From an uncultured Acidobacteriota bacterium (GTDB taxonomy: Bacteria > Acidobacteriota > Thermoanaerobaculia > UBA5066 > Gp7-AA6), in the NCBI GenBank assembly GCA_963776755.1, contig CAVZNW010000002.1:269733-333732 (forward strand): DNA of 64,000 bases, written 5' to 3'. Made by a program: the position numbers and the translations under genes. Under the pieces are notes generated by a model. The model saw only the letters and a list, made by a program, of their open reading frames with translations, was not told where the DNA came from and did not search any database. This document shows, one piece after another, positions 12,034-19,900 of this stretch. The first letter of the stretch is position 1. Each line of letters opens with the position of its first letter.

Positions 12034-12069
12034 AGGCTACTGTCCCTTCAAGCGTTCCGTGGGACAGGT
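12034..12069 (-). promoter_or_regulatory. Conserved upstream motif pair ACCTGTCC ... CAGTAGCCT
   Basis: Plus-strand AGGCTACTG (12034-12042) and GGACAGGT (12062-12069). Both elements recur at 15084-15092 and 15111-15117 at nearly the same distance from the paralog's start codon. Confidence 0.55.
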
Positions 12070-12108: not shown

Positions 12109-15052
12109 CTACTGCAGGCCGAAGGCGCGGACGAGGAAGGCCGCCATCTGCCCGCGCGAGTTCGGGAGGTTCGGGCAGAAAATGCCGGTACCGCATCCCG
12201 AGGTGATTCCCTCGCGCGCCAGCTCTTCGACCCAGGGCGTGAACGGATCGTTGATCTGGAGGTCGGTGAACATGCCGGTCGCCGGGGGCGGGGCGTATCC
12301 CGCCGCGTGGGTGGCCCGCAGAATGAAGACCGCCATCTGCGCCCGGGTCACGATGCCGTTGGGACAGTAGCGGCCGCTGCCGCAGCCGGAGCTGATCCCC
12401 TCGTCGGCGAGCTGTTCGATCCACGCCGCCGCGAAGGAGCCCGCGGGGACGTCGCTGAAGACCGTCCCCGTCGCCGCCGGGGGAGCGTAGCCGCTGCCGT
12501 GCTTGCTCTTGAGCAGGAAGACGGCCATCTGGGCCCGGGTCACGCCGCTGGACGGGCAATAGAGGCCGTTGCCGCAGCCGGTCGTGATGTCGTTGTCGGC
12601 GATCGTCTCGATGAACTCGTAGAACGGGTTCGACGGGGGCGCGTCCGCGAACGTCGTCACGTTGCCCTCGGTCGGGACGAAGTCCGGATCGTTGGTCACG
12701 ATGATGCGATCGACCAGGCTGCCGACCTCGCGTCCGTCCAGTTCAATCCAGTTCGACCCGGCCTGGAGCGTCACGATCCGCGGGTCGAGGGTCAGCGGGA
12801 TCCCGGTCCCGGCCCGGCCGTTCAGGATCGACCACTGCCAGTCCGGCGACCAGGTGCCTTCCGCGAGGTCGTAGACGTCCGTGCCGTTTCCCGCCGCGTT
12901 GGCGAAGAACGAGTCCTTCGTGGCGCTCGTCGCGAGCACCCGGCACCAGACGTAATAGTTGCCGCTCGCCGGAACGTTGAAGTTCCAGCGCGCCGAGCCG
13001 GCATCGCTGCTGCTGGTCGAGACGAACTGGCCACCGAACGTTCTCGTGGAGCTGCCGACGGCCATCGGAGCGGTCACCGTTCCCGGATTCGGCTTCGAGT
13101 CGCAGGATGAACGGCACCGGCGTGGGCGTCGGGGTTCCCGTGGGCGCGGGCGTGCTGGTGCGCGTCGGCGTCGCGGTCGGCGGCGGCGGGGTGGGCGTGC
13201 GCGTCGGGGTCGGCGTGGCCGTCGGAGGCGCCGGAGTCGGAGTGGCGGTCGGAGGCGCGGCCGTAAAGGTCGGCGTCGGCGTCGAAGTCGGGGGCGCCGG
13301 CGTATGGGTCGCGGTCGGAGGAACCGGCGTGGCCGTCGGCGTGGGGGTCGGTGACGGTCCGTCGGTCGGCGTGAGCGTGGCGGTCGGTGTGAGCGTGGCG
13401 GTGGGGGTGGCCGTGGGAGGCGCCGGAGTCGGCGTGTCGGTCGGTGTCGCCGTCGGCGGCGGGGGCGTGGGCGTCCACGTCGCCGTTGGCGTCGCGGTCG
13501 GCGTGAAGGTCGCGGTCGGCGTGAACGTCGCGGTTCGCGTCGGCGTGGCGGTCGGCGTCGACGTGGCGGTCGGCGTCCGGGTGGCCGTCGGCGTCGAAGT
13601 CGGCGGCGGCGGCGTCGGGGTTCGCGTGGCCGTGGGGGTCGCGGTCTTCGTCGCCGTCGGCGTGGCCGTCGGCGAGCCGCCGGGCGACGCGGGCAGCAGC
13701 AGGAAGACGTTGAAGTCGAGGCCGGTGTTGGGAGGCGTCGGCCAGCCGATCGGCGCGGCCGGCGTCAGGTTCATCGGAAGCGAGATCAGCGAGCCGTCGT
13801 ACGTACCGGAGACGATCGGCCGCGCCCAGGACGTCCTGCCCATTGCGGATCTCGAAGCCCTGGCCCGGCGTGAGCACGCCGCTCAGGTCCACGGAGACGG
13901 TGGACTGCGCCGCCCAGTTGAACACCGTGATGTTGGCCCGACCGGCCTCGTACTGGTTGGGGCGAATGAAAACCTTCACGCCCGTGGGGCGGGAGGAGTA
14001 GTAGGTGTTGTTCGGGAACTGGGTCGGCGTGAACCCCTCGATCGAGCCGTAGAACGTGTTGCCGTTGATGGTCATCGAGTTGCAGAAGACCGTGACGTTG
14101 TTCGCGATGTAGTTGTTCGTGACAGTGCGGGCTCTGGCAGTTCGGCGCCGGACAGCCCGAGCTTGAGCGCGGTCGTCGGACCGCCCGGCGAGTAGAAGAG
14201 GTAGTTGCTGATGAGCTTCGGGTTCTGAGACGGGGCCTCGCCGCCGACGAGCGCATTGCGCGTGTAGCCCGTCGAGGCCGTTCTGGAAGAGCCGTGTTGC
14301 CTTCGAGCTGGATGTTGTTGATGACCGCCGCGGAGGAGCCGTAGAACTGGAGGCCTTCGCCGAAATTGGAAAACACGATGCTGTCGGTGACCTTCTTGGT
14401 GTCGATCCGGTTCTGGCCGTAGACACCGTGGCCGTGGCCGTCGTCCGGGGCGCTCCAGCCGTTGTAGTAGACTGATGCTGCCGTAGATCTCGGAGTTCGT
14501 CGCTTCGTCCCAGAAGCTGAAGCCCTGGCGCGTGTCGTGGACGATCATGTTGATGAACTTCAGGCCGTCGTGGGCGGTGCTCTGGTCGATCACGACGCCC
14601 TCGCCGCGAGGGATCTCGGTGCCGTTCGGGCCCGGGCCGGACACCGAGGAGACCCGGTCCGTGTTCGAGGACATCACCTCGAAGCCCCAGTACCAGGTGT
14701 AGGCGCCCTTCGACGAAGAAGATCGGCGATCCCGTTGGAGTTGCCCCCGTCGATGATCGCGCGTTCGCCGGCGTACTGCCGCACGAATGATCGGATTGCT
14801 CGCAGCTTCCGGTCAGCTGACTCGTGTACGTCCCGGTGTACGTCCCTCCCCGCAGCCAGATCGTGTCGCCCGGCATGCACGGCCGACGGATGGTTCAGCG
14901 CCGTCTGCAGCTTCCAGGGGTTCCCGATGGTCCCGTTGCCGCTGGAGCTCGCGCGTCGGGGAGACGTAAAACTCGCTGGCCCCGGCGACACCCGCGAGAG
15001 CCATGAGCAGAGCAAGGCTCAGGCCGGGTGTCCGCCGAAACGCGAATCTCAT
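12109..15052 (-). CDS. Secreted beta-helix protein, paralog 3: beta-helix, long Pro/Thr stalk, CBM6/35-like beta-sandwich, three SLH repeats (frameshifted)
   Basis: ATG at 15052 gives the signal peptide [25 protein letters not shown]. The head closely matches paralog 2. A PTATPT linker spans 13110-13690, followed by [24 protein letters not shown] and SLH repeats at 12109-12660. Confidence 0.8.
13110..13690 (-). repeat. Coding low-complexity Pro/Thr tandem repeat, about 190 aa
   Basis: Translates as [31 protein letters not shown]... in ORF 12743-13843. Confidence 0.9.
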
Positions 15053-15083: not shown

Positions 15084-15156
15084 AGGCTACTGGTCACGAA
15101 GGCCGAAGACGGACAGGAGCCCGTTGAGGAGGCAGCTACTGTTCTCACGGACAGGT
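15084..15156 (-). promoter_or_regulatory. Duplicated motif pair upstream of paralog 3, including a lux-box-like 20-mer
   Basis: AGGCTACTG (15084-15092), GGACAGG (15111-15117), then TACTGT-N8-ACAGGT (15137-15156), which fits CTG-N10-CAG. Confidence 0.55.
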
Positions 15157-15319: not shown

Positions 15320-16084
15320 ATGCTCGGTCGTCACGCGTACAAATCCCAGAGCGGCGGTCGTCGCTGGCTGTACCGCGTCTGGGGCGCTCCGTCCATCCAC
15401 GTCCGCCAGAAGTGGTCGGCGGTCTGGCCGCTCGTTTCCGAGCTGCCCCAGCAGGATCTCGAGATCCTCGACCTCGGTTGCGGCAAGGGCGACTGGGTGC
15501 TCGAGATCGCCGCGCGCCGGCCCGGCTGGAAAGTGATCGGCGTCGACCGGAGCCACGAAGCCGTCGCGAGTGCGGAGGCCGGCGTGGGCGCGCTGGCGCT
15601 CGAAAACGTCCGTCTGCGGGTCAGCGATTTTTTCGACTACGCGGCGCAAAAGCCCTTCGACGTCGTCCTGTCGATCGCCGCGATCCACTACGCGGCGCGC
15701 GACGGGCGCATCGATGAATTGTTCGATCGTATGCGATCGTGGGTCAAACCGGGAGGGCGTCTTCTTCTGCTCGTTCCCCGCCGGCGCGCCCGGGTTCCGT
15801 TCTGGCGCCGGCTGCCCCATCAGGAGTGGCATGCGGTCTTCTCGGCGGCGGATCTGCTTCGCCTCTGCGAGGAGCACGGCTTTGCGGTCGAATCGCTCTC
15901 GGGCACGGTCGGGCCTCGCAGGACGGCCGCCAAGCAGATCGATTGGCTGGTCAACTCCCGCTGGCCCGCCCTGCGCTCGCTGGCCTATCCCCTGATCTGG
16001 CTCCTGAGCGCCACCGAACCGGCCGTGTTCGCTTCGCGCCAGATCCCGACGGCGTTCTGGACACTTTCCGCGCGGGCCCATTGA
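15320..16084 (+). CDS. Class I SAM-dependent methyltransferase
   Basis: ILDLGCGKG, VIGVDRS, DVVLSIAAIHY and VKPGGRLLL. Confidence 0.88.
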   Translation: MLGRHAYKSQSGGRRWLYRVWGAPSIHVRQKWSAVWPLVSELPQQDLEILDLGCGKGDWVLEIAARRPGWKVIGVDRSHEAVASAEAGVGALALENVRLRVSDFFDYAAQKPFDVVLSIAAIHYAARDGRIDELFDRMRSWVKPGGRLLLLVPRRRARVPFWRRLPHQEWHAVFSAADLLRLCEEHGFAVESLSGTVGPRRTAAKQIDWLVNSRWPALRSLAYPLIWLLSATEPAVFASRQIPTAFWTLSARAH

Positions 16085-16142
16085 TTCGATCGGCCCCCGC
16101 CCCGGATCAGCGGTCTCTCCGTGCCCGGCCGGCGTGCGAAAT

Positions 16143-16162
16143 ACCTGTCCCTGGGTACAGGT
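16143..16162. promoter_or_regulatory. lux-box-like palindrome ACCTGT-CCCTGGGT-ACAGGT
   Basis: Perfect 6-bp arms with an 8 nt spacer. It ends 6 nt upstream of a candidate TTGCTC-N17-TACCCT promoter (16169-16197). Confidence 0.6.
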
Positions 16163-16204
16163 TCGCCCTTGCTCCGGCGCTCCAAAAAACGTACCCTGCC
16201 GTCA

Positions 16205-16879
16205 GTGTCGAAAGGTGTTCCGCGCCGTCGGGCTACGGTCTGCTTGCTTGCCTTCCACCCGCTCGTGCTTTCGGAGTTCGAGCGGCTTCTCGCGGAGCAT
16301 CCGCTCGCGGTCACGCCCCGGCGCCTGGAGCCCGACCTGATCGCCGACCCGGCGAAGCTGAACGTTCCGCGGGCCTCCGTCTACGTGGTGGAAAGCCATG
16401 CGCACCGCCCGACGACCGAGGCGCTCGTCGTCGGGGTGATCGGGCGGCAGCCGGCGGCCCGGGTCCTGGTGGTCGCCGAGAAGTTCGGGCAGGCGGAAGC
16501 CTTCCCGCTGCTTCGACTCGGCGCCAAGGGTCTCCTGACGTTTGCCGAGGCCTCGGAGCAGCTCGCGCGCGCGGTGTTGGAGGTCGCGAGCGGCGGCTTC
16601 TGGGTCCCGCGCTCCCTGCTGTCGAGCTTCGTGGACGAGACCATCAGCTCGGTCCGGCGCCCCCGGGGGCCCGTCGGCCCGGCCCGGCTGTCCCGCCGGG
16701 AGAAGGAAGTTCTGGAGGCGCTGCTCGAGAATCTGTCCAACAAGGAGATCGCGAGCAAGCTCAACATGTCCGAGCGAACGGCCAAGTTCCATGTTTCCAA
16801 TCTGTTGGCCAAGTACGGGGTACGCCGGCGGGCCGACCTGATCCTCCTGACCTACACGCAGCTCGAGAAGCCCGTCTAG
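16205..16879 (+). CDS. LuxR/NarL-family HTH regulator with an atypical (pseudo) receiver domain
   Basis: C-terminal LSRREKEVLEALLENLSNKEIASKLNMSERTAKFHVSNLLAKYGV. The N-terminal REC-like fold ends in GAKGLL..LARAVLEVASGGFW. The in-frame GTG at 16205 is preferred over 16121 because it follows a -10 element. Confidence 0.88.
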   Translation: MSKGVPRRRATVCLLAFHPLVLSEFERLLAEHPLAVTPRRLEPDLIADPAKLNVPRASVYVVESHAHRPTTEALVVGVIGRQPAARVLVVAEKFGQAEAFPLLRLGAKGLLTFAEASEQLARAVLEVASGGFWVPRSLLSSFVDETISSVRRPRGPVGPARLSRREKEVLEALLENLSNKEIASKLNMSERTAKFHVSNLLAKYGVRRRADLILLTYTQLEKPV

Positions 16880-16887
16880 CGGGCCCT

Positions 16888-16916
16888 TTGACAGGGCCCC
16901 GGGCGTCGAATAGCCT
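16888..16916 (+). promoter_or_regulatory. Sigma70 promoter of the PQQ-dehydrogenase/SLH genes
   Basis: TTGACA (16888-16893), a 17 nt spacer and TAGCCT (16911-16916). Confidence 0.7.
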
Positions 16917-16946: not shown

Positions 16947-19900
16947 ATGAAGAGGCCTCTGCTCGCCGCCGCATTTGTATTGGCCGTCACAAACGGCCTG
17001 GCGGGCGCGGTGCTGCCCGCGGGATTCACGGAAACCTCCTGGAGCGGGATCACCAATCCGACGGCGATGGCGGTCGCTCCGGACGGCCGGCTCTTCGTCT
17101 GCGAGCAGGGCGGCAAGCTCCGCGTCATCAAGAACGGCGTCGCTGCTGCCGACGCCGTTCGTGACGCTGACCGTCGATTCCGCCGGCGAGCGGGGCCTTC
17201 TCGGCGTCGCGTTCGACCCGAACTTCCTCTCCAACCAGTACGTCTACGTCTACTACACGGTACCGGGCTCGCCGTCGCACAACCGGCTCTCGCCGCTTCA
17301 CGGCCAACGGCGACGTCGCGCTCTCCGGGCAGCGAGCTCGATTCTTCTCGAGTTGAACGACCTGACGTCGCCACCAACCACAACGGCGGCGCCATCCACT
17401 TCGGCACCGACGGGAAGCTCTACGTCGCGGTCGGCGACAACGCGACCGGCTCGAACTCGCAGACGCTGACCAACCTCAAGGGCAAGATCCTCCGCGATCG
17501 GCGTGCCGCCGGACCCGCGATTCCGACCGACAACCCCTTCTACGGCCAGGCGACCGGCAACAACCGCGCGATCTGGGCCCTCGGCCTGCGCAACCCGTTC
17601 ACCTTCGGTGTTCAGCCGGGGACCGGCCGGATCGTTCATCAACGACGTCGGGGAGAACACCTGGGAGGAGATCAACGACGGCGACGCCGGCGACAACTAC
17701 GGCTGGCCGACGTCCGAGGGCGACTGCAACAATCCCGAGCTACGAGGACCCCCTCTACACGTACAACCACTCGCGGAGCGTGCTCGATCACCGGCGGCGA
17801 CTTCTACAACCCCGACGTTCCGCAGTTCCCGGCGAGCTACGTCGGCAAGTACTTCTTCGCCGACTACTGCGGCGGCTGGATCAAGTACATCGATCCGGCC
17901 TCCGGCACGCCCAGCGCCACCACCTTCGCGACCGGAATCTCGAGCCCGGTCGACGTCCGGACGGACTTCAACGGGTACCTCTACTACCTCGCCCGCGGCG
18001 AGGGCAAGGTCTACCGGATCACGTACACGGGCTCGAACGCCCCCACGATCACGGAGAACCCGCAGAGCCAGCTGATCTCGACGGGCCACCCGGTCACCTT
18101 CACCGTCAGCGCGACGGGCCAGGCGCCTCTCTCCTACCAGTGGCAGCGCAATTCGACGGACATCGGCGGCGCGACCGTCTTCCTCCTACACGATCGCCTC
18201 GGTCGGCAGCGGCGACAACGGCGCCCAGTTCCGCTGCATCGTCTCCAACGCAGTTCCCCCGAGCGCCACGAGCGCGCAGGCGACGCTGACGGTGACGTCG
18301 AACCAGCCGCCCGCGGCCACGATCTCCTCGCCCACGGCGGGCACGACCTACGGCGGAGGCGACACGATCGCCTATGCGGGCAGCGCCAGCGACCCGGAGA
18401 CGGGCGCCTTGCCGGCTTCGGCCTTCACCTGGTGGGTCAACTTCCACCACGACACGCACTTCCATCCGTTCCTGCAGCCGACGAGCGGCGAGACGAGCGG
18501 CTCGATCACGATCCCGTCGTTCGGCGAGACCTCGGCCAACGTCTGGTACCGGATCCACCTCTCGGTCGTCGATCCGGCGGGCCTGACGGACGAGACGTAC
18601 GTCGACGTGATTCCGCGGACCACGACGATGACGCTCTCGACCAATCCCAACGGCCTTCAGCTCACGCTCGACGGACAGCCGTTCACGGCGCCGCTCGACG
18701 TCGTCGGCGTCGAAGGGATCCGGCGCACGCTCGGCGCGCCGTCGCCCCAGTCCTCGGGGGGCAACACCTACAACTACGTTTCCTGGTCCGACGGCGGGCT
18801 CCAGACCCACGACATCTTCACGCCCGTGTCCGACACGACCTACACGGCGCTGTACACCAGCGGCCCGACGCCGACCTTCACGCGCACGAACACGCCGACG
18901 ATGACCCGGACGGCCACGGCGACGGCGACCCGCACGGCGACCCCCACGGCGAGCCCGACGCCGCCCTCGGGCTCGCTGCCGCCGCCCTGGGCGCAGCAGG
19001 ACGTCGGCTCGCCGGGGGTCGCCGGGAGCGCGGGGTACGCGAGCGGCGTCTTCGCCGTGACCGGGTCGGGCGCGGACATCGAAGAGGCGTCGGACCAGTT
19101 CCACTACGTCTACCAGACGTTGAACGGCGACGGCACGATCCAGGCGCGCGTCGCGACGCAGCAGAACACGGACCCGTGGGCCAAGACCGGCGTCATGATG
19201 CGCGAGACCCTCCTGGCCGGCTCGAAGCACGCGATGATGGCGATCACGCCGAGCAACGGCCTGATCTTCCAGCGCCGCACCTCGACCGGCGGGGCCACCT
19301 CCTCGACGTTCGGCGCGGCCGTCGCCGCGCCGTACTGGGTCCGGATCGTGCGGGCCGGGCTCGAGCTTCAGCGCCTACAGCTCGCCGGACGGCTCCACCT
19401 GGACGCTGCTCGGCACGAGCACGATCACGATGGCGACGAGCATCGTGGTGGGCCTCCCGGTGACGAGCCACAACAACTCGGTGCTCGGCACCGCGACCTT
19501 CGACAACGTCGCGGTCACGCCGACGATCACACCGACGCCCTCGTTCACGGCGACGGTGACCAGCACCTCGACCCCCTCTCGGACGCCGACGCAGACCTGG
19601 ACCTCGACGGTCACGCCGTCGCGGACGAACACGCCGACGTTCACGTCCTCGCCGACGGCCTCGCGCACGCCGACGCAGACGCCGACGGGGTCGGCGACGC
19701 CCACACGGACTGCGACGGCGACCGCCTCGCGCACACCGACGCAGACGGCGACGGGATCGGCCACGGCGACGCGGACGGCGACCGCCACGGCGACCCGCAC
19801 GCCGACGGTCACCGCGACCCAGCCCGCCGGAGTGCCGCCGCCCTGGGTGCAGCAGGACGTCGGAGCGGTGGGGCTGCCCGGCACCGCGACCTATGCGGGC

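Follow-up and report, generated by a model that had tools for sequence, protein, structure and literature searches.

Which protein reads a lux-box-like palindrome in a bacterium whose genome holds no autoinducer-binding domain? The question is raised by a 20-bp palindromic candidate operator, ACCTGTCCCTGGGTACAGGT, at positions 16143-16162 (no strand assigned) of a 64,000-nucleotide stretch of DNA from an uncultured acidobacterium of the class Thermoanaerobaculia; this whole stretch is the window referred to below. The palindrome lies upstream of a gene (16205-16879, plus strand) that, according to domain searches, a structural model and fold matches, encodes a 224-residue regulator combining a pseudo-receiver with a LuxR/GerE-type helix-turn-helix (HTH). 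An earlier sequence-only reading of the window had proposed that this factor controls its own gene through the palindrome, with no quorum sensing involved. Judged from its sequence, its matrix score and its conservation, the palindrome is a real, conserved cis-element. We consider it likely that this element, hereafter the box, is the operator of the regulator and of the single paralogue that shares its recognition helix, both acting without quorum sensing.

Both 6-bp arms of the box are perfect, and 8 of the 10 position pairs match overall, the inner CC and GG bases contributing two further pairs that extend the dyad. At 14 of 20 positions the box is identical to the lux box of Vibrio fischeri, ACCTGTAGGATCGTACAGGT, whose sequence agrees with published work (e.g. 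PMC4444344). Both the ACCTGT-N8-ACAGGT palindrome and the lux-box match including the two arms, as described in the sequence-only reading, therefore stand. The family consensus, with its 8-bp arms, is nearer to the box of CviR than to that of V. fischeri. The palindrome alone proves little, because the window contains 59 perfect 6-N8-6 inverted repeats of some sequence, and its significance comes from conservation. That number is what speaks for a chance occurrence without function, a notion that we find hardly credible: an exact ACCTGT-N8-ACAGGT is expected 0.01 times per window, the position of the box is conserved across species and the sequence is enriched genome-wide.

To score upstream regions we used a weight matrix built from orthologous sites. 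On this scale the box at 16143-16162 reaches 25.3 bits, the second-best score in the genome. Among 26 loci encoding orthologues of at least 78% protein identity, the best upstream match exceeds 15 bits and lies 61-78 nt before the start codon in 17, and four more carry a weaker copy of the box in the same position; in a control on 600 nt of coding sequence the best score never rose above 11.7 bits. Another genus of the family, represented by genome G063 (57% protein identity), has the box ACCTGTCCGCCCGGGCAGGT, which scores 20.0 bits, and the layout of box, -35, -10 and start is unchanged there. In family f3 the box is present further upstream. The palindrome is thus kept upstream of orthologues, in a second genus as well, which is the conservation that the sequence-only reading had put forward as a check.

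The open reading frame (ORF) list offers two start codons for the regulator, GTG 16121 and GTG 16205. We rejected the former: orthologues from at least 15 species of the same genus (79-97% identity) all start at the equivalent of 16205, with GTG or ATG, and the orthologue in G014, 97% identical, sits in an open frame of exactly 224 codons, which leaves no room for a counterpart of the 16121 start. The start is thus 16205, as had been thought likely, and the box, which a start at 16121 would have placed inside the coding sequence, lies outside it, 43-62 nt upstream of the GTG. Its centre is about 52 nt before the start codon and the inferred transcription start site.

Alignment of the upstream regions reveals three conserved blocks ahead of the start codon: the box, a CTTGC and, last, GTAMCCT. 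The CTTGC, invariant among orthologues, marks a putative -35 hexamer, TTGCTC (16169-16174, plus strand), 6 nt after the box. The third block reads GTA(C/A)CCT across orthologues, with invariant T, A, C and T columns, and marks a putative -10 hexamer, TACCCT (16192-16197, plus strand), 17 nt after the -35. As this -10 ends 7 nt before the GTG, the regulator mRNA is probably leaderless or nearly so. In 27 homologues the start codon is preceded by a TAnnnT hexamer that begins 12-16 nt ahead of it, most often 13 nt, and no Shine-Dalgarno sequence was found in the upstream regions of these 27. Two orthologues have about 12 extra nucleotides between box and -35, approximately one helical turn. A scan based on the E. 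coli promoter consensus did not call the regulator promoter, which is therefore placed by the phylogenetic footprint only. A box 6 nt upstream of the -35, with its centre at about -52 from a leaderless start, would suit an activator, and for this reason positive autoregulation appears the more likely sign, as judged from position alone.

Upstream of the box, an S-adenosylmethionine-dependent methyltransferase gene (15320-16084, plus strand; Pfam Methyltransf_23, 2.5e-20) ends 59 nt before the palindrome, and a small RNA fold of -8.4 kcal/mol is possible. Both facts would be in keeping with a hairpin that acts in RNA, perhaps to terminate or stabilise the methyltransferase transcript. We rejected this explanation and regard it as very improbable. 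The palindrome has no T-run and drew no terminator call. In most relatives the upstream gene is divergent and nothing is transcribed into the box. The arms are conserved in sequence whereas the spacer varies, and copies of this sequence turn up, in either orientation, in intergenic DNA unlinked to this locus.

The regulator protein and its recognition helix

By sequence and modelled fold, the regulator is a member of the LuxR/FixJ (GerE) superfamily with NarL/FixJ architecture and a phosphorylation-dead receiver. Pfam detects the GerE domain (PF00196) with E=6e-17 and 61.5 bits against a cut-off of 23.5, and PDB sequence matches agree in placing a GerE/LuxR-type HTH at residues 161-215 (16685-16849, plus strand); neither the Response_reg nor the Autoind_bind (PF03472) domain of Pfam matches the protein. 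Residues 10-128 (16232-16588, plus strand) form a receiver-fold domain according to an AlphaFold2 model, PDB fold matches and alignments. The model, made with 44 homologues and with a predicted local distance difference test (pLDDT) score of 86, shows a five-strand, five-helix (beta-alpha)5 receiver fold, a linker helix (136-149) and a four-helix HTH. Full-length RcsB, LiaR/VraR, NarL, ChrA and VpsT are among the Foldseek matches, with E values of 1e-10 to 1e-8 for RcsB, LiaR, VraR and NarL. In NCBIfam and PDB sequence searches, residues from about 55 to 215 align to VraR/LiaR, DosR, ChrA, NarL, CsgD and VpsT.

All five phosphorylation residues of the receiver are replaced: A16 and F17 stand for the acidic DD pair after beta-1, E63, which ends beta-3, for the acceptor Asp (present only in family f3), A91 for the Thr/Ser after beta-4 and F113 for the Lys after beta-5. 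There is no adjacent histidine kinase gene, the neighbours being the methyltransferase gene and a gene for a GSDH-type surface protein. PF03472 is absent across the 4.4-Mb genome, and a control search detected this domain in E. coli; the LuxI domain PF00765 gave no match in the genome, and control genomes likewise gave none. LuxR solos do not need a LuxI-type synthase in their genome. The receiver-like, rather than autoinducer-binding, N-terminus that had been read from the letters is borne out by the model and the Foldseek matches. The domain searches gave the content that had been expected: PF00196 is present, and PF03472 is missing both here and across the genome.

The alignments place the residues W133-V-P-R136 (16601-16612, plus strand) immediately ahead of helix alpha-6. 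They belong to the family motif G-G-(F/L/Y)-W-V-(P/G)-R, in which W133 and R136 are invariant in the 44 homologues; the paralogue has W-V-G-R and a distant homologue (L079) has the canonical W-L-T-R. In VpsT, cyclic di-GMP (c-di-GMP) is bound through a motif where helix alpha-6 begins, W[F/L/M][T/S]R (PMC7288161), and QstR, which carries the proline variant WLPR, works without c-di-GMP (PMC6237807). At the level of sequence, W-V-P-R resembles the VpsT motif and especially the proline variant of QstR. A PDB sequence search aligning the linker region to VpsT returned no meaningful matches.

The recognition helix, SERTAKFHVSN (residues 189-199; 16769-16801, plus strand), was located by alignment to CviR (3QP6), whose helix SERTVKFHVAN is identical at 9 of 11 positions; over a longer stretch, LNISERTVKFHVANVIRKL in CviR faces LNMSERTAKFHVSNLLAKY in the regulator. 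Compared over these 11 residues, V. fischeri LuxR, in the sequence quoted by the sequence-only reading, scores 7/11, and VraR and GerE about 6/11. The helix is invariant in the 44 homologues. With the HTH as query, the PDB sequence search matched GerE, DosR, CviR, VraR and NarL. Over this domain CviR is by far the best of the acyl-homoserine lactone (AHL) receptors (3.5e-7, versus about 1e-3 for LasR and SdiA). Taken as a whole, the domain resembles AHL receptors no more than it does GerE, DosR or VraR; the likeness to AHL receptors is confined to the recognition helix. The description of the helix as AHL-type accordingly gains from the CviR identity, but it does not extend across the HTH.

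How does this helix bear on the box? In a passage of PMC12114271 that cites Stauff and Bassler, the ideal CviR site is given as the 16-bp palindrome CTGNCCNNNNGGNCAG. The family consensus of the box, ACCTGTCC-N4-GGACAGGT, with the core CTGTCC-N4-GGACAG, fits the site as given there exactly, and it has the form of a lux-type operator, a 16-20-bp dyad with CTG-N10-CAG. A near-identical helix together with an identical operator design is, in our inference, the strongest argument that the family reads the box. Only two genes of the genome encode this helix, the one in the window and a paralogue at C4:682529-683152, which is 58% identical overall and has an identical recognition helix; the six other GerE-type proteins have different helices. 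We picture the regulator as a NarL/FixJ-like protein, with receiver fold, linker helix and GerE HTH and with a receiver devoid of phosphorylation residues, whose dimer would set its two CviR-like SERTAKFHVSN helices on the CTGTCC and GGACAG half-sites.

Further boxes and the proteins that may read them

Scored with the matrix, the window's own genome contains 6 sites above 20 bits and 9 above 18 bits, compared with 1 and 2 in a reversed-genome control. Thirteen sites score above 16 bits, and roughly 10 of them fall in intergenic DNA, 30-260 nt before genes. Boxes precede two genes for GSDH-PKD-DUF11 secreted proteins, the gene of a 720-residue protein with SLH-like repeats, the gene of an outer-membrane-like protein heading a polysaccharide export and O-antigen-type locus, the gene of a NusG-like factor in the same locus and the gene of a PSP1-domain protein. 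Others stand before genes for an isocitrate/isopropylmalate dehydrogenase homologue, a squalene-hopene cyclase and a small hypothetical protein. Predicted boxes of this genome include those at C2:230163, 2588603, 2366195, 46449, 985846, 284869 and 516488. In four promoters of this genome the layout is common: box, 5-6 nt, -35, 17-19 nt and -10. Taken together, the roughly ten further boxes would make up an envelope regulon comprising GSDH-PKD and SLH proteins, polysaccharide export with a NusG-like antiterminator, and the PSP1 protein.

The enrichment extends to relatives. With up to two mismatches allowed, ACCTGTCC-N4-GGACAGGT occurs 115 times in 25 genomes of the genus, compared with 9 control matches; the same pattern occurs 6 times versus 1 in family f3, and 7 times versus 3 in f2, a sister family in which the regulator is missing from 8 of 9 genomes. 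Twenty of the best sites from other species, which we retrieved, are nearly all intergenic, and four targets keep an orthologous box in other species: the NusG-like, GSDH-PKD and PSP1 genes and that of a 123-residue protein.

The polysaccharide locus occupies C2:226000-246000, with boxes at 230163 and 236580. Named from their translations, its genes encode an O-antigen-ligase-like, an outer-membrane-like, a Wza-like and a NusG-like protein, an ABC-2 transporter pair, and a nucleotide-sugar dehydrogenase and epimerase that are frameshifted; Pfam was run only for the outer-membrane-like protein, which had no match, and for the NusG-like factor. Tandem boxes whose starts are 25-30 bp apart occur before the NusG-like gene of G021 (L126, G021:C50, 2001-2045) and before the PSP1 gene of the window's own genome (C2:2588573-2588622). 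Such pairs hint at cooperative binding of two dimers.

Two proteins share the recognition helix, and the box could be read by the paralogue alone, the gene at 16205 being a target in a cascade rather than autoregulated. The identical helix would allow it, and six genomes (G008, G009, G011 and G015-G017) that yield only a paralogue-type match still contain 2-7 boxes. The upstream region of the paralogue itself has no box. Yet identical helices predict binding by both proteins, box and regulator gene stay together from one genus to the next, and several of the six genomes are incomplete and may simply lack the orthologue in their assemblies. We hold this arrangement to be unlikely, and favour the box as an operator of the regulator and its paralogue together.

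Several observations weigh against that assignment. Five of the 26 orthologues have no upstream box, two of these loci carrying the symmetric variant TGGCC-N4-GGCCA. Four distant homologues in other Acidobacteriota have the same helix and no upstream box. Of about 250 sampled Acidobacteriota, 6 hold the regulator family, and there is no genome-wide box enrichment outside family f1; a phylum-wide test of co-occurrence is uninformative with so few holders. The co-occurrence of box and regulator is, moreover, phylogenetically confounded and amounts to about two or three independent lineages. G021, a genome of the same genus that is 73% complete, contains six boxes and neither the regulator nor the paralogue in its assembly; this absence may be an assembly gap and, if real, it argues against pairing regulator and box. 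Since the paralogue carries an identical helix, autoregulation is inseparable from cross-regulation. The V. fischeri lux box is centred at -42.5, where it overlaps the -35, whereas the centre here is at about -52. Going by these comparisons, the operator as defined belongs to one order, the helix itself being the same more widely.

The boxes of G021 and the box-free distant homologues are also what would be expected if some unrelated transcription factor used the box as its operator and the resemblance to the CviR box were a coincidence. Such a coincidence has, in our judgement, little probability. The helix is near-identical to that of CviR, whose box consensus is the same; the box stands directly upstream of this regulator gene in three genera; and no other regulator gene was seen with an adjoining box among the sites examined. 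The regulator and its same-helix paralogue thus stay our preferred readers of the box.

Neighbouring promoters and genes

In most relatives the divergent neighbour of the regulator is a beta-helix/SLH surface-protein gene (here with its ATG at 15052, minus strand), and a single box stands between the two promoters, about 70 nt upstream of the divergent one. The beta-helix promoter is in two parts, a half-box CCTGT(C/A)C and, after 18-20 nt, CCAGTAGCC. In the window this promoter-like element reads CCTGTCC, 18 nt, CAGTAGCCT (15084-15117, minus strand); CAGTAGCCT contains the -10-like hexamer TAGCCT and the half-box takes the usual place of a -35. The same element, half-box plus CAGTAGCCT, precedes a beta-helix paralogue (12034-12069, minus strand), where the full-site score is only 8.9 bits. 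In this genome the two-part element is promoter-like only before these two beta-helix genes, and in relatives it lies beside the box of the regulator.

The methyltransferase gene is inserted only here and in the two closest relatives, and these three have two boxes. The second, TACTGTTCTCACGGACAGGT (15137-15156, no strand assigned; 18.8 bits), lies between the beta-helix/SLH and methyltransferase genes, beside the beta-helix promoter, and is likewise found in the two closest relatives; the box at 16143-16162 adjoins the regulator promoter. The single box of other relatives would thus also serve the divergent surface-protein gene, and with the methyltransferase inserted each promoter would have kept its own copy. 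We rejected CCTGTCC-N18-CAGTAGCCT as a general alternative-sigma promoter whose -35 would account for the palindrome: occurrences of CAGTAGCC in this genome are almost always coding, being the reverse of the GYC/GYW codons of SLH repeats. Upstream of the box in four family f3 loci (L027, L028, L030 and L031), about 150 nt before the regulator, we noted a conserved element CTACTGGTCG-N3-TGTCAAAAAAAGAACAGG, akin to the CTACTGG...ACAGG element seen in the genus, though with an A-run.

On the other side of the regulator, the downstream GSDH-type gene (16947) has what looks like a strong promoter of its own that does not depend on the box, TTGACA-17-TAGCCT (16888-16916), and no box. The sequence-only reading had seen the regulator as the hub of a surface-protein island; conserved synteny favours this idea, but the promoter and the missing box of the GSDH-type gene do not. 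Right after the regulator stop codon, within 16881-16916, there is a hairpin GGGCCC-tttgaca-GGGCCC, whose loop and 3' arm hold the perfect TTGACA; the promoter-like element in this interval is conserved in the closest relative. Both sets of surface-protein genes (12109-15052, minus strand, and 16947-19463) consist of overlapping ORFs in different frames that turn into Arg/Pro-rich nonsense. The assembly comprises 4.4 Mb in 4 contigs and is scored as only 56% complete. The breaks in these ORFs look like long-read indel errors rather than true pseudogenes.

Comparison with known systems

The closest parallel at the level of helix and operator is CviR of Chromobacterium violaceum, with 9 of 11 helix positions identical and an operator consensus, CTGNCCNNNNGGNCAG as given in the passage cited above, that is identical in design. 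CviR exerts positive feedback on its own circuit through cviI, to which a regulator with a box at its own gene can be likened. The two differ in their sensing parts: CviR has a PF03472 domain and needs the AHL made by CviI, whereas the regulator has a receiver fold and resides in a genome without PF03472. Over the whole HTH, moreover, its similarity to CviR only equals that to DosR and GerE. V. fischeri LuxR and the lux box share with our pair the 20-bp dyad, the ACCTGT and ACAGGT arms and the helix pattern SERT..FH..N. They differ in the inner arm bases, which are AGG/CGT in the lux box and CC/GG here, and LuxR is AHL-dependent.

Over the full length, the sequence and fold searches find their best matches in NarL, RcsB, LiaR/VraR and DosR, which share the regulator's order of domains and its linker helix. 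Unlike the canonical NarL/FixJ proteins, the regulator has all 5 of 5 phosphorylation residues replaced and no histidine kinase gene next to its own; in the recognition helix it has Phe before His, as do AHL receptors, where canonical NarL/FixJ members have Val, Thr or Asn. Assigning the lux/CviR-type box and helix to such a protein would mean that they are not confined to AHL receptors, which bears on the inference of quorum sensing from lux boxes, and it would make a natural test case for the extent to which operator choice in the LuxR superfamily is set by the recognition helix alone.

In its presumed biology the regulator can be compared with the VpsT/QstR/BrpT/CsgD group, which likewise joins a receiver fold that is not controlled by phosphorylation to a GerE HTH and acts on polysaccharide and surface-matrix genes, targets that are only predicted here. 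The group differs in belonging to another phylum and in sequence identity of 16-18%, and for QstR no common binding motif was found (PMC6237807). Tentatively, and with somewhat less than even confidence, we suggest that a CviR/LuxR-type helix and CTG-N10-CAG box, long regarded as the hallmark of AHL receptors, here work with a phosphorylation-dead receiver as the master switch of an S-layer-like and polysaccharide programme, the pseudo-receiver sensing something other than an AHL, such as c-di-GMP or a partner protein. Were this so, the reading of lux boxes would be a portable module that predates quorum sensing or reaches beyond it. What we describe is in any event a testable prediction of regulator, operator and regulon for Thermoanaerobaculia, a class for which metagenome assemblies are almost the only source. 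All its components are of known kinds; what is new is that a receiver-type module comes with a CviR-type helix and box, and that an envelope regulon is predicted in an uncultured class.

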